This document shows positions 450 through 10,646 of a stretch of 64,000 bases of DNA, piece after piece. The notes beneath the pieces are model-generated. The model was given only the letters and a program-made list of their open reading frames with translations, was not told where the DNA came from and searched no databases. A program made the translations under genes and the position numbers. The DNA comes from an uncultured Geminicoccaceae bacterium. GTDB taxonomy: Bacteria; Pseudomonadota; Alphaproteobacteria; Geminicoccales; Geminicoccaceae. The stretch is taken from assembly GCA_964393275.1 (NCBI GenBank), contig CAYMTA010000009.1:53544-117543 (forward strand). Reading direction: 5' to 3'. Position 1 is the first letter of the stretch, and the number at the start of each line of letters is the position of its first letter.

Positions 450-833
450 ATGCGTATGATTGCACTATCGCTCGTCTCGGGCGTTTGCCTGCTGGCCGCG
501 ACATCGGCCAATGCCGAAGGGGTAGCCCTCACCGATCACCAGCTCGACCAGGTGACCGCCGGCGCTCTCGAGCTTGGCGTCAGCCAATTGACGATGGGAA
601 CCATGTCTGCCAGCCGTTCGTTCGTCGCCTCGCCGCTGCTCCGCCAGGCAGTCAATGGCAGCCCAGCGCAACCTGACGAGAACCCACCCGTGCCTGCACA
701 GCCGGGCTTGCTGGAGATCATCTCGGGCGCATACTCCGATCAGAACAACGGCCAAGAGATTAGCAAGGCTCCTGTGCTAGGAAAGCTGTTCCTGTCACTC
801 CAGGTCTTCGGCCAGACTCCTTCTGCCCCATAG
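450..833 (+). CDS. Small secreted protein, VTAG-motif family paralog 1
   Basis: Internal ATG of the tracked ORF 255..833, preceded by GGGAG. Signal peptide MRMIALSLVSGVCLLAATSANA, then EGVALTDHQLDQVTAG (motif nt 528-563). Confidence 0.7.
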   Translation: MRMIALSLVSGVCLLAATSANAEGVALTDHQLDQVTAGALELGVSQLTMGTMSASRSFVASPLLRQAVNGSPAQPDENPPVPAQPGLLEIISGAYSDQNNGQEISKAPVLGKLFLSLQVFGQTPSAP

Positions 834-909
834 CCGCCGTCGGCGCATTGAACCTTGCTCGATGGGATCGAGCCGCTCTGACCAATGCAGAAAAAGGGGG
901 GAAGCCGTT

Positions 910-1356
910 ATGTCGCTCCTGAAAAAGGCGAGCGTTCTGTCAGCCTGTCTGCTGGCGACCGCCTCGATCGCCAACGCCGAGCAGGTCCGGTTGTCCATTG
1001 GCCAACTCGATCATGTCACAGCCGGCGCGATCTCGCCAATCTCGCCAATCTCGTCCATTTCGCCAATCCCGCCGATCGGTGGTGGGGCTGAGGCTCCCTC
1101 GCCCGGGGACCCGCCGGCGTCGACACCTGGACCGTCGGCACCCCCACCGGTTCGACTCACCCGGTCTGTGGGTGATGGCTCGGCTATGGCTTATGTGCCG
1201 ATAACGCCGGCCGGATCGATCACCGAGATCGGTCTCCGCGTCACACCCGGGCCCAATGGAACATCGGGCACCGCCTATGTCCGGGTGTCGTCGGAAGGCG
1301 GCGGCCCGATCACCTTGCCCGGCGTCAGCGCCACGGTTGTCCACAGCGGCAAGTGA
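910..1356 (+). CDS. Small secreted protein, VTAG-motif family paralog 2 (ISP-repeat, Pro-rich)
   Basis: Internal ATG of ORF 862..1356, preceded by GGGGGAAG. Signal peptide MSLLKKASVLSACLLATASIANA, then EQVRLSIGQLDHVTAG (nt 991-1026), followed by ISPISPISSISPIPPI. Confidence 0.7.
   Translation: MSLLKKASVLSACLLATASIANAEQVRLSIGQLDHVTAGAISPISPISSISPIPPIGGGAEAPSPGDPPASTPGPSAPPPVRLTRSVGDGSAMAYVPITPAGSITEIGLRVTPGPNGTSGTAYVRVSSEGGGPITLPGVSATVVHSGK
1030..1077 (+). repeat. Imperfect 9-bp tandem repeat (5 units, ATCTCGCCA-like) encoding (I-S-P)n
   Basis: Read directly: atctcgcca atctcgcca atctcgtcc atttcgcca atcccgccg atc. Confidence 0.8.
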
Positions 1357-1370
1357 GCTCGGATCAACCT

Positions 1371-3581
1371 CTACGTCGAAGCGCGTGATTGGGAGCAAAA
1401 GCGCTCCCACATCACGCGCAAGGCCCTTTCGATCTCGTGCCCAAAGAGCCGCTGATCGCAAAGCGCCGAGCTTGCCATGGCTTGGCGCTGGGCCGCGCGA
1501 TAATCGGCGAGACGCAATGGCTCCGTTGCCAGGCGGATGGCGATAGCAAGGTAGGCATCGGCGTTGCGCGCCACCCATTCCGGACGTCCGATAGCCCGAA
1601 GCAGGGTCTCGGTTTGCCTCGACACAGGCTGCCAGCCAGGCATGGTGACGATCGGCACTCCCATCCACAGGGCTTCGCAGCTCGTCGCCCCACCGCCGAA
1701 TGGAAACGGATCGAGGGCGATATCGACGTCGCCATACTGGCGCAGCACGGCAGCGTTGTCGGAAACACCACGCAGCTCGAGCCTGCCGTCCGAGACTCCG
1801 GCCCCGCGGATGGCCTCGCGTATCCTGGTCGCGACCGATGGATTGTCCAATGACGGCGACTTCAGGATAAGACGGGCAGTTGGCAACCGCTGGAGCAACC
1901 GGCACCAAAGCGCCAGCACTTCTCCTGTGAGCTTCGCCACATTGTTGAAGCTACCGAAGGTGATCCAGCCCTGGCGCAGCACGGGGGGCTCGGCGGGTTC
2001 CGGTGCGGTTGCCGGCGGCTCGTAGCAGAAGCGGCTGGGCGACAGGCGGATTACCCGTTCCGCGAAGAGCCCCTCCTCGCCCGGTGCAACGGCCACCTCG
2101 TCCATGATCGCATAATCGATCGCCTCCAGGCCGGTGGTGAACGGATAACCCAGCCAGGTTGCCTGGACCGGAGCCGGCTTGAGCGCGAAGCACCCGAGCC
2201 GGTTAAGCGCCGTGTGCCCGGATATGTCGATCAGGATGTCGATGCCGTCGGCGCGCACCTGCTCGGCCAAACGCCGATCCTCCATGCCGACGACCAAGCG
2301 CCAGCCATCCGCCAGCTCCTTGAACCGCGCGGTCATATTGTCTTCGCGGCCATTGCTCGAGTAGCAGATCACCGTGAAACGGCTGCGATTGAGCGCACGA
2401 AAAACAGCCATGAGCCAGTCACTTACCGCATGTCGGCAAAGCTCCGCCGAGACGATTCCGACCCGTAAGGGGCGAGTGGGGTCGGGGTCGTTCTGCCACT
2501 CCGTGAAACGGCCTGTCGGCTGGCCGAACCGTCGTCCCCACGCCGCGTGCTCCCGCGCGAGATCCTCCGGATGTTGGCTTGGATCGTAGAGGAGCGTGAG
2601 CAGCAGATTGCTATGGATGCGAGGATCATTCGGATCGATCGCGGAGGCACGCCGCAGGGCCGCCAGCGCATCGTCGATCAAACCCATGTCCCGCTTGATC
2701 TTGCCGATATTGTTGTAGGCGAAGGCGAAGTCGGGGCGTCGGGCCAGCACATCTTCATAACCTGCCAACGCTTCCTCGAAGCGGCCGAGCATCTCCAGCG
2801 TTTGAGCCCGATAGAAACGCGCGTCGAATTTCTCGGGGCTCAGCTCCAAGGCTCGGTCGAACGCAGCGAGCGCCGCCTGTCCCATCCCGTGGTCAATCTC
2901 GACCAGACCCAGCCCAATGAGAGCATAGACCGACTCCTCATGCTCCAGTGCCTGATCGAAGGCGTCCAACCCCTCCGCATAGCGGCCGAGCGCATGCAGG
3001 GCGTAACCCTTTTCGGCCCACGCACGACCGTGCTCCGGCGCACGCAGAAGAACAGCGTCGAGATCGGCGAGCGCGGCGTCGGGCTCTCCGGCGAGGCGCC
3101 GCGCCCCGGCTCGCGCAACGAGAATGTCGATGGAGCCCGGCACGGCCGCTAAGGCGGAATCGGCGGATGCAATGGCGGCTTCGTGTTGTCCGAGCTCCGC
3201 CAGGATGAGGATGCGCCATCGTTGGGCATCGATCATAGTCGGCTCGAGCTCAGTGAGCGACTCGAGCTTCGCCAGGGCGTCAGCACTGCGCCCAAAAGCG
3301 GTGAGGAGGATGGCAAGATTGTGCAAGGCCGAGACATAGCGCGGGTCCAAGGTGATTGCCCGCTCATAGGCTGCTATCGCCTCGGCCGGTTGCCCGATCG
3401 CGGTCAGGATGAACGCCTGAACACCATGGACGCGGGCGTACTCCGGATCCGCTTGGCTCGCCTCTCGCCAAAAGGCCTCGGCGCGGTCGTTCTCTCCCTG
3501 GTTGCACGCCGCCACGGCCAGATCGAGAAGCATGTCCAGCTCCGACCGTTCCCCGGACATCGCATGGCCAACCTCACGCAT
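1371..3581 (-). CDS. TPR-repeat protein with C-terminal GT41 (SPINDLY/O-GlcNAc-transferase-like) glycosyltransferase domain
   Basis: 736 aa with no signal peptide. The N-terminal half has many TPR-like repeats (AxxxYxxAlxldP pattern). The C-terminal half has the OGT/SPY-type pattern (GSFNNxxKL..., LDPFPFGGGATSCEALWMGVPIVT). Confidence 0.85.
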   Translation of the reverse strand: MREVGHAMSGERSELDMLLDLAVAACNQGENDRAEAFWREASQADPEYARVHGVQAFILTAIGQPAEAIAAYERAITLDPRYVSALHNLAILLTAFGRSADALAKLESLTELEPTMIDAQRWRILILAELGQHEAAIASADSALAAVPGSIDILVARAGARRLAGEPDAALADLDAVLLRAPEHGRAWAEKGYALHALGRYAEGLDAFDQALEHEESVYALIGLGLVEIDHGMGQAALAAFDRALELSPEKFDARFYRAQTLEMLGRFEEALAGYEDVLARRPDFAFAYNNIGKIKRDMGLIDDALAALRRASAIDPNDPRIHSNLLLTLLYDPSQHPEDLAREHAAWGRRFGQPTGRFTEWQNDPDPTRPLRVGIVSAELCRHAVSDWLMAVFRALNRSRFTVICYSSNGREDNMTARFKELADGWRLVVGMEDRRLAEQVRADGIDILIDISGHTALNRLGCFALKPAPVQATWLGYPFTTGLEAIDYAIMDEVAVAPGEEGLFAERVIRLSPSRFCYEPPATAPEPAEPPVLRQGWITFGSFNNVAKLTGEVLALWCRLLQRLPTARLILKSPSLDNPSVATRIREAIRGAGVSDGRLELRGVSDNAAVLRQYGDVDIALDPFPFGGGATSCEALWMGVPIVTMPGWQPVSRQTETLLRAIGRPEWVARNADAYLAIAIRLATEPLRLADYRAAQRQAMASSALCDQRLFGHEIERALRVMWERFCSQSRAST

Positions 3582-3643
3582 CCCGTTTCCGCAAGCCTTC
3601 CCAGCTTCCTGTCAAATATAGCAAACGGCAGACGCCCCACGCA

Positions 3644-3682
3644 CAAAAAAGAAGAGCCCCATCTTGTGATGAGGCTCTTCTG
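3644..3682 (-). terminator. Rho-independent terminator downstream of paralog 3
   Basis: On the minus strand: AGAAGAGCC-loop-GGCTCTTCT followed by TTTTTT. A second hairpin AACAGCG/CGCTGTT sits at 3688-3708. Confidence 0.75.
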
Positions 3683-3760
3683 ACTTCAACAGCGATGCAT
3701 CCGCTGTTCTAGGTCAGCCAGGCAACGCTTTCACGTCCCTGCCCGACCCGACAGGATGGC

Positions 3761-4135
3761 TCACGGTTGTGAGAACGACACCGAGCCGCTAACCGCCAAG
3801 GTGCCGCCCGAACGAACCCGACCGTTGTTGTTCAGGGAAGCGGCATCAATCTGGTTGGTGGCATAACCCTGCGTCGTGCGCACCGAGCTGAGCGAGGTGC
3901 CGATGGTGGCCGTGTTCGACGTGTTGCTCTTGCTCTCCGAAATCACGACCGCCTTGGTGGTGTTCCTGGTACGGACAGGACCGGTGATACCGAGGGCCAA
4001 ATCCAGATCCAGGTTGAGACCGGCGGTCACACCGTCCATCTGGCTGGCGCTGAGCTTCATGGGCTCGGCAGCCATGGCGCTGGTCGCCAGCAACGTGACG
4101 GCCGCACCGGCGAGAAACAGATTCTTCATCGACAT
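3761..4135 (-). CDS. Small secreted protein, VTAG-motif family paralog 3 (Ser/Thr/Asn-rich)
   Basis: AGGAGAAG RBS. Signal peptide MSMKNLFLAGAAVTLLATSAMA, then AEPMKLSASQMDGVTAG (nt 4019-4054). The mature part is rich in T/S/N/G/V. Confidence 0.75.
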   Translation of the reverse strand: MSMKNLFLAGAAVTLLATSAMAAEPMKLSASQMDGVTAGLNLDLDLALGITGPVRTRNTTKAVVISESKSNTSNTATIGTSLSSVRTTQGYATNQIDAASLNNNGRVRSGGTLAVSGSVSFSQP

Positions 4136-4212
4136 TGAGGCTTCTCCTAGGTTTTAGTCGGTACCGTCCACGACCGATCCATGTTTCGAAAGGTCAGTCG
4201 AGAACCTCGTGT

Positions 4213-4240
4213 GTCCGGCCGGGCCATTGCCCGGCCGGAC
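4213..4240 (-). terminator. GC-rich stem-loop at the stop of paralog 4 (no U-tract)
   Basis: GTCCGGCCGGG-ccattg-CCCGGCCGGAC, an 11-bp perfect stem abutting the TAG stop. Confidence 0.4.
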
Positions 4241-4593
4241 TAATTCGCAAAAACACCTGTGAGGACGCCACCACCACCAGCAGCCGAGGTGATGCCGACC
4301 CCGCTGGCCTTGACGGAGGTCTGAGAGATGGCGAGCGCCTGAAAGTCACCCGACGAGGACGGCGGCGTCAACAACACGCTTCCCTCCGTCTGGGTCAGCG
4401 AGACCTGATAGAGGGTGATCGACGCGCCGCGGGCTGTCGCCAGTCCCGTGCGAGAAATCGCAAAACCACTCCAGAGACCCGCCGCCGTGACCGAATCCAG
4501 CGATGCTGCATCCAGCCTGACCGGCTCGCCGGCAAGCGCCACGCTGCCGACGCCAAGGAGGGCGATGCCCACAAGTCCGTTCAAGATGCGCAT
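4240..4593 (-). CDS. Small secreted protein, VTAG-motif family paralog 4
   Basis: Internal ATG of ORF 4240..4743. Signal peptide MRILNGLVGIALLGVGSVALA, then GEPVRLDAASLDSVTAAG (nt 4477-4515). Confidence 0.65.
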   Translation of the reverse strand: MRILNGLVGIALLGVGSVALAGEPVRLDAASLDSVTAAGLWSGFAISRTGLATARGASITLYQVSLTQTEGSVLLTPPSSSGDFQALAISQTSVKASGVGITSAAGGGGVLTGVFAN

Positions 4594-4801
4594 GGGTTGA
4601 AACTTTCCTCTGGCACGATCGCAAAGCGACCACGAATTGCTTTCTGTTCCACCCTGACGCGGCCCAACCGCCCTGCAAGCACTGAATCGAAGCGGGAACT
4701 CCAATCCGAACAATAGCTTAGCTGGCTTCTTGGTCGCTGGCAACAGCCCTTTCGGATGATAGCCGAAGGTGGAACACCGGACATACAGGCTTCGAGGTCA
4801 G

Positions 4802-5254
4802 TTAAAAGATCGGGAACTCGCTGGCAACCGATGCCATGCCCACCGCGGCGACCTGCGCCGAGAAGAAGCCGGAGCCGTTAATTCTGACATTGATCGGAAT
4901 GGTCCAGACCTTCTGCCCGACGACATTGGTTGCGCCCACGCTCGCCGTTGCGGACGGCGGTGGTGCCACGCCACCAATGCCTATCGCCTTCGCCACGGCG
5001 ACGCCCTTCGTGACCGACAGCGACGGATTGCTGGTGCCCACCACGGTGCTCTCGAACGAGGCTTCCGAGCCCACGGTGCCCCAGGCTTGAGCGGCACCAT
5101 TCAGCGTGAAGCCGGAGACGGCGCCCGCGGTCACCGAGTCCATCTGGACCGCGTCGAGCCGCATGGGCTCGGCGGCCTGCGACGAGACGAGCGGCAGCGC
5201 CACACCCAAGGCGGCCAGCAGCGCCGCCCTCTTGGGGAAACCGGAAATCCGCAT
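4802..5254 (-). CDS. Small secreted protein, VTAG-motif family paralog 5
   Basis: Internal ATG of ORF 4802..5314. Signal peptide MRISGFPKRAALLAALGVALPLVSSQA, then AEPMRLDAVQMDSVTAG (nt 5123-5158). The C-terminus ends in ...EFPIF. Confidence 0.7.
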   Translation of the reverse strand: MRISGFPKRAALLAALGVALPLVSSQAAEPMRLDAVQMDSVTAGAVSGFTLNGAAQAWGTVGSEASFESTVVGTSNPSLSVTKGVAVAKAIGIGGVAPPPSATASVGATNVVGQKVWTIPINVRINGSGFFSAQVAAVGMASVASEFPIF

Positions 5255-5431: not shown

Positions 5432-5737
5432 CATTGAGCCGCGTCGAGGATTAAGCTTAACAGCCCGACACTTAATGGCTGGATGGAACAAGGAGTGATT
5501 TAAACTTATAGTTTAATCGCATCAGCCGCCGATGAACTTCTCGCATCGGGCTGGCACAGCCTGCCATGCCGGGAGCGCCGACGGACAGGCGATTCTTCGG
5601 GTCTGGGGCGCCAGATGGTTGCTTGGTCGCCCGGCGTGGCATTAGGGTAACGACCGGTCGCGTTCGCCATGAGCGGCATGCGCGGGAGTTGACCGTTTCG
5701 ACGGTTGATCTCTATCCCGCGTGGAGGAGGGAAAGTT

Positions 5738-6367
5738 TTGACGCACGCGAGCAGGCGGAGGTTTCTCGTCGGCGGTGCTCTTTTGGCGATGGGCGCTACC
5801 ACGCCGGGCTTAGCCGCGGCGCGGTCGGTCGAGAGCCTCAACGAGCGGCGCCACCATCAGGTCGTGATTCAGGAATTCGACATCAGTTGCGCCGCCGCCG
5901 CGCTGGCGACGCTGCTGACCTATCAGCATGGCGACCCCGTAACCGAGCGCCAGATCGCGCTGGGTCTGATCGATCGGCCGGAATACATCGAGAACCCGGC
6001 CTTGATCCGCCTGCGTCAGGGCTTCTCGCTGCTCGACCTGAAGCGCTTCGTGGATGGCCGTGGCTACGAGGGCATCGGCTTCGGCCAGCTCAGCTACAGC
6101 GATCTGCTCGAGCGGGCGCCGATCATCGTGCCACTCGACCTGCACGGCTTTCGACATTTCGTGGTTTTTCGTGGCGAGCTGGGCGACAGCGTCCTGCTCG
6201 CCGACCCGGCTTTCGGCAATCGCACCATGAGCCGGGAACGGTTCGAGCAGGCCTGGATCGATTTCCCGCAGATCGGCCGGGTCGGCTTTGTCGTCGAGCG
6301 GCGCGATGGCCTGATTCCGCCGAACCGCCTGGAGCCGACCTTGGCCGAGTTCCTCGTCATTCGCTGA
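5738..6367 (+). CDS. Stand-alone periplasmic C39-family cysteine peptidase (Tat signal)
   Basis: TTG start 6 nt after GGAGGAGGG. N-terminus is THASRRRFLVGGALLAMGATTPGLAAA (twin-arginine). Has the catalytic-type pattern QEFDISCAAAALATLL (Gln...Cys), and later HFVVF and ADP (His/Asp). Confidence 0.8.
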   Translation: MTHASRRRFLVGGALLAMGATTPGLAAARSVESLNERRHHQVVIQEFDISCAAAALATLLTYQHGDPVTERQIALGLIDRPEYIENPALIRLRQGFSLLDLKRFVDGRGYEGIGFGQLSYSDLLERAPIIVPLDLHGFRHFVVFRGELGDSVLLADPAFGNRTMSRERFEQAWIDFPQIGRVGFVVERRDGLIPPNRLEPTLAEFLVIR

Positions 6368-6391: not shown

Positions 6392-7570
6392 ATGCACCGT
6401 CGGCAACCGACCTCGACACGAGCACCGAACCTGCGGATCACGACCGTGGCGACGGCCGCCCTGCTGCTGCATTTGTCCGGCCCCGTCGCGGCCCAGGACA
6501 CAGGCACGGTCAGCGACCAGACCCTGCAGGAGGAGCTCAAGGCTCGCGACGCCGTGATCATCGAGCTGATGCACCGGGTCGACGAGCTCGAGCGGCGGCT
6601 GGGGGGAACGGAGGCGCCACCGGTCGCGGCGAAGGCCGCGCCGGCCCAGCCCGGGGAAGCACCGCCACCGGTCGAATCCGCCGAGGCGCCAGCCCCGGCA
6701 CCCGCCTCTCGTGGCCTGATCGATGTCGACGAGCTCGCCGCGGAGCGTGCGCTGGAGCGCACCCTGGTCGATGTGGGCGCGCTATTGCTGCCCGCCGGCC
6801 AGTCGGAGCTCGCGCCGGCGGCCGGCTTCACGCGACGCGATTCGAACTTCCCCACCCTCATCGGCGGGCAGGTCGTCAATGCGAACACCGAGCGCAACGA
6901 ATTCGCCTTCGACCTGGGCCTGAGCGTCGGACTGCCCTTCGATTCGCAGTTCGAGCTCAACCTGCCGTTCGATCTGGTCAACGAGCAGGGCAATCTGGAC
7001 ATCAACGGGGGCGTCGCGAGCTCAACCGAGCGCACCGGCTACGGGCTCGGTGACATCACGCTCGGCTTTGCCAAGACGCTGCTGCGCGAGGGTGAATGGC
7101 GGCCCGACCTCGTCGGCCGCGTCGTCTGGGACACGGCCACGGGCGATCAATTCGACGACGGGGTCTACCTCGGCAACGGCTTTCACCAGGTCAGCGGGCA
7201 GCTCGTCGCCGTCAAGCGCCAGGACCCGCTCGCCTTCGTCGGCGGCTTCACCTACAGCTACGCGTTCGAGGACGACGATATCAAGCTGGGCAGCGAGTAT
7301 GCCTTGTCGCTGGGCGCGGCCCTGGCCCTCAGCCCCGAGACATCGCTGAACGTCGCCCTCAATCAGACCTATTCCGACGATATCGAGGTCGACGGCGAGA
7401 AGGTCAACGGCAGCGATCAGCTGGCCGCCAGCTTCGACTTCGGCGGCTCGGCGATTATCGCGCCGCGCACGCTCTTCAGGTTGAACACCAGCATCGGCCT
7501 GACCGATGACGCGCCCGACTACTCCGTCCGCGCCACGGTTGCCTACCGCTTCAACACACCATTCTTCTGA
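6392..7570 (+). CDS. Outer-membrane beta-barrel protein with N-terminal coiled coil and Ala/Pro linker (FapF-like / MetA-pathway-type barrel architecture)
   Basis: Signal peptide ...LLLHLSGPVAAQD. Heptad-like segment DQTLQEELKARDAVIIELMHRVDELERRL, then an AP-rich linker. Alternating beta-strand pattern ending ...ATVAYRFNTPFF with a terminal Phe. A GTG at 6380 is an alternative start. Confidence 0.7.
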   Translation: MHRRQPTSTRAPNLRITTVATAALLLHLSGPVAAQDTGTVSDQTLQEELKARDAVIIELMHRVDELERRLGGTEAPPVAAKAAPAQPGEAPPPVESAEAPAPAPASRGLIDVDELAAERALERTLVDVGALLLPAGQSELAPAAGFTRRDSNFPTLIGGQVVNANTERNEFAFDLGLSVGLPFDSQFELNLPFDLVNEQGNLDINGGVASSTERTGYGLGDITLGFAKTLLREGEWRPDLVGRVVWDTATGDQFDDGVYLGNGFHQVSGQLVAVKRQDPLAFVGGFTYSYAFEDDDIKLGSEYALSLGAALALSPETSLNVALNQTYSDDIEVDGEKVNGSDQLAASFDFGGSAIIAPRTLFRLNTSIGLTDDAPDYSVRATVAYRFNTPFF

Positions 7571-8351
7571 CGGCCGCGAGGTGGCGTTGCGCCAGGAGCG
7601 CCACCTCGGTCCGGTTCTTGGCATTCAGTCGCCGCATGATCTGCCGGACATGCACCTTGACGGTGCTCTCGGTCATCCGCAGGCGGGTGGCGATCACCTT
7701 GTTCGGATGCCCTTCCTGGAGGATCTCCAGAACATCGACCTGCCGCGGCGTCAGCTCTTGTGACAGCGCCGGGCCGTCCGGGGCCGACTCGCTCGCCACG
7801 TCGCCGAGGGCGGGACGTCCCTCCTGCCTGAGCCACTGGCTGACGAGATCGCCCGGCACGAACATGCCGCCGGCCTGCACCAGGGACAGCGCCCTGCACA
7901 TCAGCGGCGCCTCCTCGGAGGTCGCGATGAAACCCATCGCACCGGCCGCCAGGGCGTTGCGCGCCTCCTCCGGCTCGGTGCGATCGGACAGCACGACCAC
8001 CGGCACCGAGTCGTGGTTGCCGACGAGGCGATCGAGGTCCGCGCGGGTGGCCGGGTCGTCGATCGACAGGCTGCCGACACTGTAGATGATCAGCGAGGGC
8101 CGGCCTTCCGGGGGCAGACCCTCGCGGGTCAGCTCGTCGACGGACACGGCGACGATCTGCTGGCTGAGCGCATCCGAGGCGCAGAGATAGCGCGAGATGC
8201 AAACCCGGCTGAACGGCCGGGGGTCGACGAGAGCCAGCCAGGGGTCGGGGCGCGGGGCAACCCCTGCTGGGACCGCACGAATCGCCCCGGAGGCTCTCGT
8301 TAGGGTGTCAGTGCCTGGCAGTGGATTGTTCGCTGATGACGTCGCTAACAT
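7551..8351 (-). CDS. LuxR/FixJ-type transcriptional regulator with degenerate receiver-like N-terminal domain
   Basis: C-terminal HTH: LTPRQVDVLEILQEGHPNKVIATRLRMTESTVKVHVRQIMRRLNAKNRTE. The ATG at 8351 is preceded by AAGGGGAG. The receiver-like region lacks an obvious DD pair or phospho-Asp context. Confidence 0.75.
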   Translation of the reverse strand: MLATSSANNPLPGTDTLTRASGAIRAVPAGVAPRPDPWLALVDPRPFSRVCISRYLCASDALSQQIVAVSVDELTREGLPPEGRPSLIIYSVGSLSIDDPATRADLDRLVGNHDSVPVVVLSDRTEPEEARNALAAGAMGFIATSEEAPLMCRALSLVQAGGMFVPGDLVSQWLRQEGRPALGDVASESAPDGPALSQELTPRQVDVLEILQEGHPNKVIATRLRMTESTVKVHVRQIMRRLNAKNRTEVALLAQRHLAAVRRMVC

Positions 8352-8741
8352 GATCGTCTCGCTCCCCTTCGATCCCGGCAACCAAAGTGGTAGGCGGAAC
8401 CCTTGCAGCTACGGGGCACTTAACCCTACCGATCGAGACGAGCATCTCCGGTAGAGTCTTTATGCTTAAGGCGCATTAATACAATCGATGAAATCGTCAT
8501 CTTTTGCAAGGGAGTATCGCTCACTCCCGCTGTAGAATAGTACCTACGGCGATGTTCAACCATCGGGCAATCGGCGCAATGACGCTGCGCCTTAATCGTC
8601 CATTAGCTTCATGGAATATCTCCGACTTAACCAAAGGTAGTGGGCCGCAGGTGAGAAAGCTCGCGGTACGATCGAATGCTCCTGCCGACGCACGTCGCCC
8701 GGCAATTGCCGCGTTCACGCTACGGTTGCTGTTTTCACATT

Positions 8742-9446
8742 TCAACGCTTGCAAAGCTCATGACGGCTCTTGAGCATGAACGGCCTGTCGACGGATTCTT
8801 GCGCAAAGACGGTGATCGCGTCGATAGCCAGCGCCCGGCTTTCGATCACCATGGCGTGATCGCGCAGGAACTCGAGCAATCGGCATCGCTCCTGCTCGCC
8901 CAGTCGTTCGGTCAAGGTCATGTGGAAACGGAAGTCGTCGAGGACGAAAGGATAGCCGTATTGCCTCAAATGGCTGTCCTGTCGCGGTGACAGCCCTCCT
9001 TGGCGTCGCCTCGCGATCTCGTCGACACTGGCGGGGGCCCGGAAGCAATCGAAGGATCGCACACAGTCGGCAGCGAGCTCGTCCAGGGCAGGAGCCGGCG
9101 CGCTCGGCGTGAGGGCGATGAAGCCGTCGAGATCGGTCACCTTCAAGGGTGGTGCCGCAACGGCCGAACGCAGGGATGCGAATTGGCCCGCTGCCGCCGC
9201 CAGGTCGTCCACCGTCCGTCCCTCGGCGAGCCGGAAGGGAGCCTTGAGCGTGGCGTGAAAGCCATAGTGTCTGGGCGACCTGGTGATCTCGCGCAGACGC
9301 GCGCTGGTGAACCCGGGCACACGTGGCTGCGACAGCGTCGTTTCTGTCCAACTGTGCCGCCCGAGCCACGTCGCGCCGAAACGCTCCAGCTCGCTCCCTG
9401 CTGCCGGCGCGAAATAGATGGCATATCGGCCACTCACGCTATCCAT
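8742..9446 (-). CDS. DUF1045 / 2H-phosphoesterase-type putative phosphonate metabolism protein
   Basis: N-terminus is RYAIYFAP...HYGFHATLKAPF with a second ...FRFHMTLT motif (two H-x-T-type motifs). Located next to phnM, as is typical for this family. Confidence 0.7.
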   Translation of the reverse strand: MDSVSGRYAIYFAPAAGSELERFGATWLGRHSWTETTLSQPRVPGFTSARLREITRSPRHYGFHATLKAPFRLAEGRTVDDLAAAAGQFASLRSAVAAPPLKVTDLDGFIALTPSAPAPALDELAADCVRSFDCFRAPASVDEIARRRQGGLSPRQDSHLRQYGYPFVLDDFRFHMTLTERLGEQERCRLLEFLRDHAMVIESRALAIDAITVFAQESVDRPFMLKSRHELCKR

Positions 9447-9455
9447 GCGTCCCGC

Positions 9456-10646
9456 TCAGGCAACGCGACGCCTCTCGACCAGAACTTCGCGAACGATCGG
9501 CCGCCCGCGGATCGGCTTGACGCGGAGAAGGTCAGCGCGCAGCCCCGGAGCGATCCTGCCACGATCCTCGAGCCCGGCGATGACGGCCGGTCGCCACGAC
9601 ACCATGGCGATGGCCCGGGCCAGCGGCAGGCCGAAAGGCGCCTCGGCCAGTGCAAAGGCGCCCTTGAGCAGGCTCGCCGGGATGTAGTCCGAAGCCAAAA
9701 GATCCAAAAGGCCGCCGGACACCAGATCCCCTGCGGCGACATTGCCTGAATGCGAGCCGCCACGCAGCAGGTTGGGAGCACCCATCAATGTCGGCAGGCG
9801 CAGCTCGTGCGCCGCCATGGCCGCCTCGATCGTGGTGGGGAATTCGCTGAAGGCCGCGCCGAGGGCGACCGCCTCCTCGACATGCGCCGCCCTGGCATCG
9901 TCATGCGTGGCAAGCGGGATCCGCCATTGGCGGGCCAGGGCGGCGAGGGCGCGGCGATTGGGTGGCGCAAAGGTCCGCGATCCCTCGAGCAGCCGCGCGA
10001 TATGCGCCTCGACCCGTTCCGCCTGCCCGAGGATGCGTCGATAGCGCCGACGGTAGGCCTCGATGTCGGGCGTCTGGCGGTCACCAGGCGCATGATCCAT
10101 GAGCGAGAGCATGGCGACCGGGTGCGCCCTGGCATGCTTCTCGAGCGTTTGGACGACATCCGGGTGGGTGACCTCGCAACGGAGGTGAACACGGTGATCG
10201 ACGCGCAGCATCCCGTGGACGCGCGCCTCGTCGAGACCCTCGAGCATCGGCTCGATCATCTCGGCGCGAACATCCCAACCTTCGGTCGCCCCGATGGTCA
10301 GGCTGTCATACACCGTCGTGATGCCTGCCGATGCCACTTGGCCGTCATGGGCAATGGCTGCCGCCACGGGATCCCAGGTCACCCCGGAGCGCGGCTGGAA
10401 ATGCTTCTCGAGATTGTCGGTGTGCAGATCGACGAGCCCGGGCAGCAGGTAATCGCCGTCGAGGTCGATGGCGCCGGGCAGCGACGTCCGGCCGGTGTCG
10501 ACAGCCTCGATCAGTCCACCTGCCAGAACGACGGTTCCCCGCTCGACGGTCTCTTCGAGAACGATCAGGGCGTTCGTCAGCACGATGGCTTCGGCAGCGC
10601 CGATGGACCGCCTCCGCGCCTCGTGGGTGATCGGGTCTGGTGCCAT
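9456..10646 (-). CDS. phnM: Alpha-D-ribose 1-methylphosphonate 5-triphosphate diphosphatase PhnM
   Basis: Strong motif identity to E. coli PhnM: LLPGLVDLHTDNLEKHF, HLRCEV, LSLMDHAPGDRQ, ATHDDA, EFPTT, LMGAPNLLRGGSHSGNVAA, LASDYIPASLL. Start is uncertain (10646, 10673 or 10736). Confidence 0.9.
   Translation of the reverse strand: MAPDPITHEARRRSIGAAEAIVLTNALIVLEETVERGTVVLAGGLIEAVDTGRTSLPGAIDLDGDYLLPGLVDLHTDNLEKHFQPRSGVTWDPVAAAIAHDGQVASAGITTVYDSLTIGATEGWDVRAEMIEPMLEGLDEARVHGMLRVDHRVHLRCEVTHPDVVQTLEKHARAHPVAMLSLMDHAPGDRQTPDIEAYRRRYRRILGQAERVEAHIARLLEGSRTFAPPNRRALAALARQWRIPLATHDDARAAHVEEAVALGAAFSEFPTTIEAAMAAHELRLPTLMGAPNLLRGGSHSGNVAAGDLVSGGLLDLLASDYIPASLLKGAFALAEAPFGLPLARAIAMVSWRPAVIAGLEDRGRIAPGLRADLLRVKPIRGRPIVREVLVERRRVA

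Follow-up and report, generated by a model that had tools for sequence, protein, structure and literature searches.

A probable double-glycine-type leader behind the Sec signal of small proteins encoded beside a predicted periplasmic C39 peptidase

Why should five small secreted proteins, which have little else in common, share a second conserved tag immediately behind their ordinary export signal? The question arises from a 64,000-nucleotide stretch of DNA from an uncultured Geminicoccaceae bacterium (contig CAYMTA010000009.1 of assembly GCA_964393275.1), referred to here as the window. An initial annotation, made from the sequence alone, noted that five proteins carry a motif after their predicted signal peptidase sites that mimics the double-glycine (GG) leader recognized by C39 peptidases. 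It proposed that the leader is removed in the periplasm by a nearby Tat-exported C39 enzyme, and regarded this arrangement as undescribed. We find that the observation itself is correct, whereas the interpretation placed upon it is only partly supported. The tag marks these proteins as probable cargo of the neighboring C39 protease and of a FapF-like outer-membrane channel, and so offers a concrete candidate for what Fap-type proteases recognize.

Translation of the motif sites gives LTDHQLDQVTAG (528-563, plus strand), LSIGQLDHVTAG (991-1026, plus), LSASQMDGVTAG (4019-4054, minus), LDAASLDSVTAAG (4477-4515, minus) and LDAVQMDSVTAG (5123-5158, minus). These coordinates, which are those of the initial annotation, cover the 12-13 residue core, and the longer peptides that it quoted begin 4-5 codons earlier. 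Each motif follows directly on from a signal peptide with n-h-c organization ending in an AxA-type site (ANA|E, ANA|E, AMA|A, ALA|G and SQA|A, respectively), such that the propeptide remaining after signal peptidase would be 16-18 residues in length. All five genes have a Shine-Dalgarno sequence before an ATG. A pattern search for [LMIV]D..TA{1,2}G finds these five sites and nothing else in all six frames of the window. Beyond the motif, the five proteins are only 26-31% identical in a forced alignment, and none of them has a Pfam or NCBIfam hit at E<=0.1.

The first two cargo genes are found on the plus strand. Gene A (450-833, 127 aa) encodes a signal peptide (450-515), the GG-type leader EGVALTDHQLDQVTAG (516-563) and cargo (564-830), and is found by the motif profile at E=1e-9. 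Gene B (910-1356, 148 aa) encodes a signal peptide (910-978), the leader EQVRLSIGQLDHVTAG (979-1026) and a Pro/Gly/Ser-rich cargo (1027-1353), with a profile E-value of 4e-10. The remaining three lie on the minus strand. Gene C (3761-4135, 124 aa) has its signal peptide at 4135-4070, the leader AEPMKLSASQMDGVTAG at 4069-4019 and a Ser/Thr/Asn-rich cargo at 4018-3764 (E=9e-10). Gene D (4240-4593, 117 aa) has its signal peptide at 4593-4531, the leader GEPVRLDAASLDSVTAAG at 4530-4477 and cargo at 4476-4243 (E=4e-7). Its leader is a variant that reads VTAAG, with an extra Ala, and has S instead of Q at P8, although its orthologue in the related locus L001 reads VTAG. Gene E (4802-5254, 150 aa) has its signal peptide at 5254-5174, the leader AEPMRLDAVQMDSVTAG at 5173-5123 and cargo at 5122-4805 that ends in the invariant VASEFPIF. 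Gene E has seven homologues, and in an AF2 model of low confidence (pLDDT 48), which serves only as a weak hint, the beta structure starts right after the A-G. A terminator-like hairpin with a 14-bp stem and a T run (3650-3681, minus) is found just downstream of gene C and probably ends an E-D-C transcription unit. Between genes B and C lies a minus-strand gene (1371-3581) for a cytoplasmic protein of 736 aa without a signal peptide, which combines TPR families with a GT41 (O-GlcNAc-transferase/HMW1C-like) glycosyltransferase domain (Pfam Glyco_transf_41, 7e-44; a weak NGT hit).

What, then, might read such a tag? The window encodes one C39 enzyme only, a stand-alone cysteine peptidase of 209 aa (5738-6367, plus), whose open reading frame opens at 5705 but whose start is placed at TTG 5738 behind the Shine-Dalgarno sequence GGAGGAGGG. 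It matches Pfam Peptidase_C39 (PF03412) at 41.1 bits against a cutoff of 22 (E=2e-10), and matches the NCBIfam models FilB (4e-28) and FapD (NF058616, 2e-25) below their cutoffs, the latter at 89.4 bits against 330, and is thus a homologue rather than an orthologue of FapD. The catalytic Cys (C62, 5888-5890) and His (H151, 6155-6157), the oxyanion Gln six residues before the Cys (Q56, 5870-5872) and the Asp of the DP motif (D167, 6203-6205) are invariant in 19 homologues of 57-89% identity. The only solved-structure sequence hit is LahT150 (6MPZ), with which the Cys and His regions align. In an AF2 model with a core pLDDT of about 90 the protein has the papain-like C39 fold, and the top 20 Foldseek hits are C39 or C39-like peptidase domains (PCAT1, ComA, LahT150 and 3ZUA), with TM scores to the target of 0.72-0.76 for isolated domains; the best matches are the GG-leader peptidase domains of PCAT1, ComA and LahT150. 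The N-terminus, M-THASRRRFLVGG..., fits the Tat consensus S-R-R-x-F-L, and SRRRFLVGGALLAMGATTPGLAAA|R is conserved in the closest homologues. However, the twin-arginine signal is confined to this closest clade and more distant family members lack RR, so Tat is not a defining feature of the family. No Tat-signal model hit was reported.

The gene that follows, 25 bp away (6392-7570, plus), encodes a FapF-like outer-membrane channel, which the initial annotation did not recognize and which is what turns propeptide removal into a secretion pathway. The protein consists of a signal peptide, a heptad-like putative coiled-coil segment, a Pro/Ala linker, a plug-helix-like segment (LIDVDELAAERALERTLV) and a beta-barrel ending in F. 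It matches Pfam Phenol_MetA_deg (2e-10) and, below cutoff, NCBIfam FapF (NF058560, 4e-15; 55.5 bits against 700), and its best and only barrel matches among solved structures are those of FapF (5O65, 5O67 and 5O68; E about 5e-7). The coiled-coil-like heptads, the Pro/Ala linker and a conserved plug-helix-like segment are seen in the 55 distinct homologues listed, as judged by inspection alone. The peptidase and the channel are distant homologues of FapD and FapF of the Pseudomonas functional-amyloid secretion system and of FilB and FilC of Acinetobacter. Convergent with the channel gene is a gene for a LuxR/GerE-type response-regulator-like transcription factor (7551-8381, minus; Pfam GerE, 4e-17), a possible regulator of the locus that is conserved at this position in the closest loci and in some distant ones.

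We next asked whether the motif accompanies the peptidase elsewhere. A scan of genome contigs with the peptidase alone found only four close Geminicoccaceae/alphaproteobacterial MAG loci, while a peptidase-anchored scan returned 80 metagenomic loci. Of these 84 related loci, 56 carry at least one motif ORF, and many of the rest have little sequence upstream of the peptidase. The motif, E-P-Φ-x-L-[TS]-x-x-Q-[ML]-D-x-[VI]-[TS]-A-G, heads 1-7 small ORFs, mostly just upstream of the peptidase, and in the 12 loci with full +/-10 kb flanks 27 of 42 motif ORFs lie within 2 kb upstream of it. A FapF-like gene was detected in 61 of the 84 loci, usually directly after the peptidase, whereas the GT41 gene is an accessory found in only 13. 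A profile built from the motif finds 137 ORFs at E<=0.01 in 85 sources (about 0.8 Mb), and none in the reversed sequences even at E<=1. Context look-ups that instead began from three motif proteins (P0128, P0130 and P0132) returned contigs of 5.6 kb or less, some with the motif gene next to transposases and none with a C39 gene, which are too short to test linkage in an unbiased way. Across the wider library, a 44-residue signal-plus-motif profile gave only 5 hits from 1,850 candidates in a word-indexed search, probably a limit of the word index, but an exhaustive profile search of representatives finds at least 433 protein clusters at E<=1e-3, which are small proteins with the match at or near the N-terminus in nearly every listed hit.

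The motif also evolves in the manner of a leader. It heads 122 distinct cargos that fall into 68 unrelated clusters, with a median length of 77 aa, and syntenic orthologues keep 47-71% identity in the leader against 24-30% in the cargo, while the peptidase stays at 82-84%. Logos drawn from 118 and 148 sequences show information content dropping sharply right after P1, with L at P12 (100%), S/T/D at P11, Q at P8, M/L at P7 (100%), V/I at P4 (99%), A at P2 (95%) and G/A at P1. This is the residue spacing of LSxxELxxIxGG, with hydrophobic residues at P4, P7 and P12 and small residues at P2 and P1. The profile aligns the colicin V leader TLTLNELDSVSGG in register, at 13.9 bits with 0 of 200 shuffles reaching this score, although the reference leaders were entered by hand and HMM similarity to leaders from Gram-positive bacteria is weak. 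P2 is Ala rather than Gly, and about 17% of instances read T-A-A-G or T-G-A-A, which shifts the register by one residue and leaves the exact scissile bond uncertain. No NCBIfam family, bacteriocin-leader models included, matched seven propeptides at E<=10, a weak negative since the filters of HMMER drop most weak matches.

Taken together, the locus most likely encodes a Fap-like two-step secretion system whose cargo carries a bipartite N-terminus, an explanation that we hold with moderate confidence. In this view, and as a standard inference from the signal peptides, Sec exports the five small proteins and signal peptidase I leaves the propeptide (A)E-P-Φ-x-L-[TSD]-x-x-Q-[ML]-D-x-V-T-A-G. This propeptide would be a double-glycine-type leader that docks on the periplasmic C39 peptidase through its P4, P7 and P12 hydrophobic residues and is cut after A-G. 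By homology with FapD and FapF, recognition or cleavage would then be coupled to passage of the unfolded, Ala/Gly/Ser/Thr-rich cargo through the FapF-like channel. The cargo would be a set of interchangeable, fast-evolving small beta-prone proteins, most likely surface or matrix fiber subunits; some cargo families resemble the single-repeat Fap-type subunits by eye, and bacteriocin-like cargo exists in a sister subtype. The analysis itself establishes the motif, its conservation, its linkage to the peptidase and channel pair, and the C39 fold (as modeled) with its catalytic residues. Binding of the leader, its cleavage and the site of that cleavage, the coupling to export and the role of the cargo are inferred from sequence and genomic context alone.

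The explanation nevertheless has competitors. The linkage and conservation evidence cannot tell binding from cutting, and the motif might be a periplasmic targeting or holding signal that stays on the secreted protein, bound either by the C39 protein acting as a chaperone-like receptor or by the periplasmic coiled-coil/plug region of the channel, with the peptidase cutting something else, such as the channel's linker. C39-like domains without proteolytic function, acting as chaperones, exist in type 1 systems, and FapF itself was proposed as a FapD substrate (PMC5557850), while the T-A-A-G and T-G-A-A variants blur a unique scissile bond. We consider this possible but unlikely, since the invariance of Q/C/H/D argues for an active protease and conservation collapses exactly after the small P2/P1 pair. 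An RLGG sequence after the channel's coiled coil was considered as a peptidase site and rejected because it occurs only in the closest clade, and the Pro/Ala linker shows no conserved GG-type site across the family.

It is more doubtful still that the segment is a structural element of the mature protein, such as the first strand, cap or nucleation element of a donor-strand or amyloid-repeat-like fiber subunit. Fap-type amyloid repeats do contain L-x-x-x-x-G-x-x-G-x-N-like stretches, some cargo families and the small subunits of Fap-like operons look alike by eye in an IQNxGxNNxxI-type repeat, and the cargo is beta-prone. However, the same segment precedes 68 cargo clusters with no detectable mutual similarity, which is hard to reconcile with one fold, it sits a variable 0-20 residues from the signal-peptide cleavage site, and its residue pattern matches an amphipathic GG leader and not a beta-strand alternation. 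In the model of protein E the segment lies outside the beta-sheet, which starts at residue 44, but the low confidence of this model means that it cannot exclude a structural role. A glycosylation tag, in which V-T-A-G or L-[ST] is the acceptor or recognition site of the TPR-GT41 enzyme, was suggested by the position of that gene within the cargo cluster and by the conserved Thr/Ser. It was rejected as very unlikely, as the GT41 gene is present in only 13 of the 84 related loci whereas the motif is present in most and tracks the peptidase/channel pair instead, and no loss of its conservation was observed in loci without GT41. The idea that the segment has no function and reflects only chance, or recent duplication of five neighboring paralogues that share signal-peptide features, is refuted by the essentially unrelated cargo, by the absence of decoy hits and by persistence of the motif both in the library clusters and across loci whose peptidases are only 51-65% identical.

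The substrate and recognition site of FapD-type periplasmic C39 peptidases have been open since 2017, and a December 2025 review still says only that FapD "is thought to" process FapE and FapF (PMC12822426). The present clade offers an unusually clean candidate answer, with a 17-residue leader containing invariant positions, a sharp leader/cargo boundary and several natural substrates per locus. If confirmed, it would define a sorting signal for outer-membrane export after Sec, allow substrates to be predicted from sequence among hundreds of uncharacterized small-protein families, link amyloid/fiber secretion evolutionarily to bacteriocin export, and provide a portable tag for secreting small proteins from Gram-negative bacteria. 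A broader reading, which we regard as about as likely as not, is that the tandem of Sec signal and GG leader is the general address label of a widespread, so far unnamed branch of Fap-type two-step secretion, in which removal of the leader by a periplasmic C39 peptidase licenses passage of many unrelated small proteins through a FapF-like channel. This branch would cover at least 433 cargo clusters, include microcin-like peptides in a sister subtype and explain what FapD recognizes in FapE. In effect, it would be the bacteriocin GG-leader/C39 module relocated from the cytoplasmic face of an ABC exporter to the periplasm.

How does this compare with what is already known? In the Fap functional-amyloid system of Pseudomonas, FapD is a periplasmic, Sec-exported C39 peptidase whose catalytic Cys is required for secretion through the trimeric FapF channel (Rouse et al. 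2017, PMC5557850), and it was proposed to cut FapE at GG/GA motifs (PMC5557850; PMC12822426). The published peptide table shows that FapE lacks detectable N-terminal peptides before residue 72 (PMC5557850). Periplasmic C39 action is therefore not new, and the claim of an undescribed arrangement was overstated, although an explicit tandem of Sec signal and GG leader on the substrates was not found in the literature that we searched. As in the window, a stand-alone exported peptidase sits next to a barrel with an N-terminal coiled coil, linker and plug helix, and the substrates are Sec-exported and unfolded. FapE-like proteins and small subunits in Fap-type operons also carry LTDDEMSSLRGG-type motifs just after their signal peptides; a tblastn search of plasmids with the Aeromonas FapE found only itself. 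The two systems differ in that the window proteins score far below the equivalog cutoffs, no FapA, FapB, FapC or FapE homologues are present by Pfam and NCBIfam, the cargo lacks the Asn/Gln-rich FapC repeats, and the peptidase has a Tat-like rather than a Sec signal. Furthermore, every cargo protein carries the leader whereas the Aeromonas FapC shows no obvious one, and a GT41 glycosyltransferase is present in part of the clade.

The Fil "putative pilus system" of Acinetobacter baumannii (FilA, DUF6160; FilB, C39; FilC, barrel), for which we found no functional characterization, provides the best NCBIfam match of the peptidase in FilB and a weak match of the channel in FilC, both scores being below the cutoffs. 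FilA has M-D-D-A-A-L-S-A-A-T-G-Q directly after its signal peptide, but it is a 280-aa DUF6160 protein unrelated to the cargo described here, and Fil has the extra genes filD-F. By analogy only, the concept also recalls dedicated sorting tags such as PEP-CTERM/exosortase and LPXTG/sortase, in which a short conserved tag on many unrelated secreted proteins is encoded near the enzyme that reads it, although those tags are C-terminal and the enzymes are unrelated membrane proteins. Finally, in the double-glycine leaders of class II bacteriocins and microcins processed by PCAT/AMS transporters (ComA, CvaB, PCAT1 and LahT), the grammar L-S-x-x-E-L-x-x-I-x-G-G corresponds to L-[TS]-x-x-Q-[ML]-D-x-V-T-A-G, and one leader serves many cargos. 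There, however, the leader lies at the extreme N-terminus of a Sec-independent precursor and is read by a cytoplasmic domain of an ABC exporter, whereas in the window it follows a Sec signal peptide and the C39 peptidase is a separate exported protein.

The region at 450-5254 harbors five small genes, each with a Shine-Dalgarno sequence and an ATG start: gene A (450-833) and gene B (910-1356) on the plus strand, and gene C (3761-4135), gene D (4240-4593) and gene E (4802-5254) on the minus strand. Each product begins with a typical n-h-c signal peptide ending in an AxA-type site, and this is followed at once by the motif E-x-[VM]-x-L-x3-[QS]-[LM]-D-x-V-T-A-(A)-G. The observation made in the initial annotation is confirmed, and the coordinates that it gave are correct for the 12-13 residue core of the motif. 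A pattern search of all six frames of the 64 kb window finds these five sites and no other. Outside the motif the five proteins are barely alignable, with 26-31% identity in a forced alignment, and none matches a Pfam or NCBIfam family. The C-terminal octapeptide of cargo E (window 4802-4828), VASEFPIF, is invariant in all eight aligned members of the cargo-E family, although the body diverges to 44% identity; it could represent a second signal, for example for the channel or for assembly, but it is not shared by the other four cargos.

Divergent from gene E lies a C39 cysteine peptidase, the only C39 in the window. It matches Pfam Peptidase_C39 at 2e-10, above the gathering threshold, whereas its best NCBIfam hits, FilB (4e-28) and FapD (2e-25), are both far below the equivalog cutoffs. 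The peptidase ORF opens at TTG 5705, but the likely start is TTG 5738, which is preceded by the strong Shine-Dalgarno sequence GGAGGAGGG and gives M-THASRRRFLVGGALLAMGATTPGLAAA/R (slashes mark the boundary after a signal or motif), a Tat-like signal that is clade-specific. One database gene call for the identical protein (P0008, 192 aa) starts at Met29 and would lack the export signal altogether. Twenty-five bases downstream starts a 392-aa outer-membrane protein (6392-7570) with a signal peptide, a heptad-rich segment, a Pro/Ala linker, a conserved helix (LIDVDELAAERALERTLV) and a barrel. This protein matches Pfam Phenol_MetA_deg at 2e-10 and NCBIfam FapF at 4e-15, the latter below threshold, and the only solved-structure matches of the barrel are the FapF entries 5O65/5O67/5O68, at E about 5e-7. 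Among the 55 distinct homologues listed, the DELERRLGG right after the coiled coil is found only in the closest clade, whereas the plug-helix-like segment PGQFEVDExAAERALERTLV is conserved across nearly all.

A LuxR-type regulator follows on the minus strand at 7551-8381. A cytoplasmic TPR-GT41 glycosyltransferase without a signal peptide, and with a weak HMW1C/NGT-like hit, is encoded at 1371-3581 on the minus strand, between cargo genes B and C. As cargo C has several N-x-S/T sequons (NTT, NTS), glycosylation of the cargo before export, as with HMW1C, is conceivable. A strong terminator-like hairpin at 3650-3681 on the minus strand, with a 14-bp stem plus T run, lies between cargo gene C and the glycosyltransferase gene, and suggests that E-D-C form one transcription unit separate from the glycosyltransferase.

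The window comes from a Geminicoccaceae-like alphaproteobacterium, and four genome loci carry peptidases that are 82-89% identical to that of the window. In three of these four loci, the fourth contig lacking the upstream region, the motif is kept almost letter for letter while the downstream sequences diverge. The leaders are 47-71% identical and the cargo 24-30%, against 82-84% for the peptidase in the two more diverged loci. A metagenome scan seeded with a peptidase alignment returned 80 further loci, with peptidases 51-89% identical. Across these sources a motif profile finds 137 ORFs at E<=0.01 and none in the reversed sequences. Of the 84 related loci, 56 carry 1-7 such ORFs, as does the window itself, and many of the loci without one have little sequence upstream of the peptidase. 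In the 12 loci with full 10-kb flanks, 27 of 42 motif ORFs lie within 2 kb upstream of the peptidase. These linkage statistics come from loci chosen through the peptidase, and three look-ups that started from the motif instead hit contigs too short to test the reverse implication. A FapF-like gene was detected in 61 of the 84 loci, usually directly after the peptidase, whereas the GT41 gene is present in only 13 of 84.

From 118 distinct instances, and taking P1 as the last Gly, the motif reads E at P16 (61%), P at P15 (82%), V/L/I/M at P14, L at P12 (100%), T/S/D at P11, Q at P8 (72%), M/L at P7 (100%), D at P6 (100%), V/I at P4 (99%), T/S at P3, A at P2 (95%), and G (81%) or A (17%) at P1. 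Information content then falls to about 1 bit at P1' and below 1 bit at P2'. An exhaustive profile search of 1.84 billion representative proteins, using only the five window leaders, gave 433 clusters at E<=1e-3; the listed hits are small proteins, nearly all matched at or near the N-terminus, and an independent logo from the top 148 is the same. Two of these library hits, P0137 and P0223, contain two copies of the leader motif in tandem within one polypeptide (...QMDGVTAG-GGGGG...-LTDSQMDGGTAGG...), and could be polyprotein-like precursors or artefacts of assembly or gene calling.

The cargo, in contrast, is hypervariable. The 122 distinct sequences fall into 68 clusters with a median length of 77 residues, in which Ala, Gly, Ser, Thr and Val make up 57% of residues and Cys is rare. 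The largest conserved cargo family (cluster 1), which has no assigned function, begins GFVCPV... right after the leader and ends ...PGDTDYTxIW, and it recurs in many otherwise unrelated loci (L080, L073, L084, L041, L077, L072, L085, L030, L022 and L035 of the related loci).

The pattern of the motif is the grammar of the double-glycine leader, L(P12)-S(P11)-x-x-E(P8)-L(P7)-x-x-I(P4)-x-G(P2)-G(P1), with Q for E and A for the first G. The motif profile aligns the leader of colicin V (TLTLNELDSVSGG) in register with a score of 13.9 bits, which none of 200 shuffles reaches, whereas similarity to Gram-positive leaders is weak; the reference leaders in this comparison were entered by hand rather than retrieved from a database. 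After signal-peptide removal the propeptide would be 16-18 residues, the size of a minimal GG leader. The peptidase, for its part, keeps the oxyanion Gln, Cys, His and Asp in all 19 aligned homologues. Its profile hits a single solved structure, the GG-leader peptidase LahT150 (6MPZ), and its AF2 model (core pLDDT about 90) superposes best on the PCAT1, ComA and LahT150-leader peptidase domains.

We propose that Sec export and signal peptidase I expose the GG-type propeptide, that the periplasmic C39 peptidase binds its amphipathic P4/P7/P12 face and cuts after A-G, and that this step licenses, or is coupled to, passage of the unfolded cargo through the FapF-like channel. What our analysis establishes is the parts list, the conservation pattern, the linkage and the fold of the enzyme; binding of the leader, the site of cleavage, cleavage itself and the coupling to export are inferred, and the T-A-A-G and T-G-A-A variants of the motif leave more than one candidate for the exact scissile bond. 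The cargo is probably a repertoire of surface or matrix fibre subunits. By eye, one cargo cluster carries the same IQNxGxNNxxI-type repeat as the small subunits of Fap-like operons, and a low-confidence model of protein E is all-beta starting right after the A-G.

Other explanations can also be considered. The motif might be recognized without being cleaved, and this remains possible, although we regard it as doubtful since the invariant catalytic residues and the sharp conservation boundary argue against it. That the segment is instead a structural N-terminal strand is unlikely, because one segment precedes 68 unrelated cargo families at a variable distance from the signal peptide. A role as a glycosylation tag for the GT41 enzyme is less likely still, and is contradicted by the patchy presence of the GT41 gene. 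Paralogy or chance is refuted by the absence of decoy hits, the diversity of the cargo and the breadth of the library-wide search.

The same logic appears in related systems. In Fap-type operons found on chromids and plasmids, the FapE-like protein carries a canonical double-glycine motif just after its signal peptide, as in Photobacterium (LTDDEMSSLRGG/FVS), Polymorphobacter (ITDYELATMRGG/IRLPDG), Croceicoccus (LSEEVLARQRGG/IRLPGG) and the Aeromonas FapE (LADGELAHLRGR); such proteins are encoded at the loci designated L092 (6588-7097), L006 (8696-9379), L009 (8582-9298), L005 (ORF 8359-9729) and L008 (8593-9240). Small single-repeat subunits upstream of the peptidase do likewise (VSDAELGKVAG/K, SSKLDDVRGG/A and LTEAFMTHSRGG/E). 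This may be the long-sought recognition site of FapD, and it fits the published observation that no FapE peptide before residue 72 is detected in Fap-expressing cells, and that GG/GA motifs precede that point. In the fil operon of A. baumannii (locus L007, 6646-7515), FilA (DUF6160, NCBIfam pilus_FilA) starts its mature part with MDDAALSAATGQ, or MQSMDDAALSAATGQDGI, a related L-x-x-x-T-G-Q motif, and lies next to FilB (C39) and FilC (barrel). A different subtype is found in Tistrella mobilis pTM2 (locus L011, 6574-8558) and on a Vibrio coralliilyticus plasmid (locus L093, 4364-6480), and comprises a small outer-membrane barrel, a stand-alone C39 and one peptide. This peptide has a signal peptide, a GG-like leader (RELTEEERKNITGA/IHPV) and a Gly-rich hydrophobic, microcin-like body ending in CSTCHQ or CGSCHVSN, and looks like bacteriocin-like cargo that uses the same logic of Sec, periplasmic C39 and outer-membrane barrel.

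The initial annotation had read the motif as a GG-like element behind a Sec signal, implying periplasmic removal of the propeptide, an arrangement that it had not seen described. That interpretation is supported in part: it is well supported as a hypothesis, but its claim of novelty needs correcting. No description of a tandem of Sec signal and GG leader was found in literature searches on FapD/C39, FilB, DUF6160 and periplasmic double-glycine processing, and a December 2025 review still gives the FapD substrate as presumed. However, the locus is a distant relative of the Pseudomonas Fap "hybrid secretion system", in which the periplasmic C39 peptidase FapD and the trimeric channel FapF are both needed to export Sec-delivered subunits (PMC5557850), and periplasmic C39 processing is the FapD paradigm. 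What appears to be new is the explicit and highly conserved GG-type leader placed behind a Sec signal on every cargo protein of a large, uncharacterised FapD/FapF-like clade.
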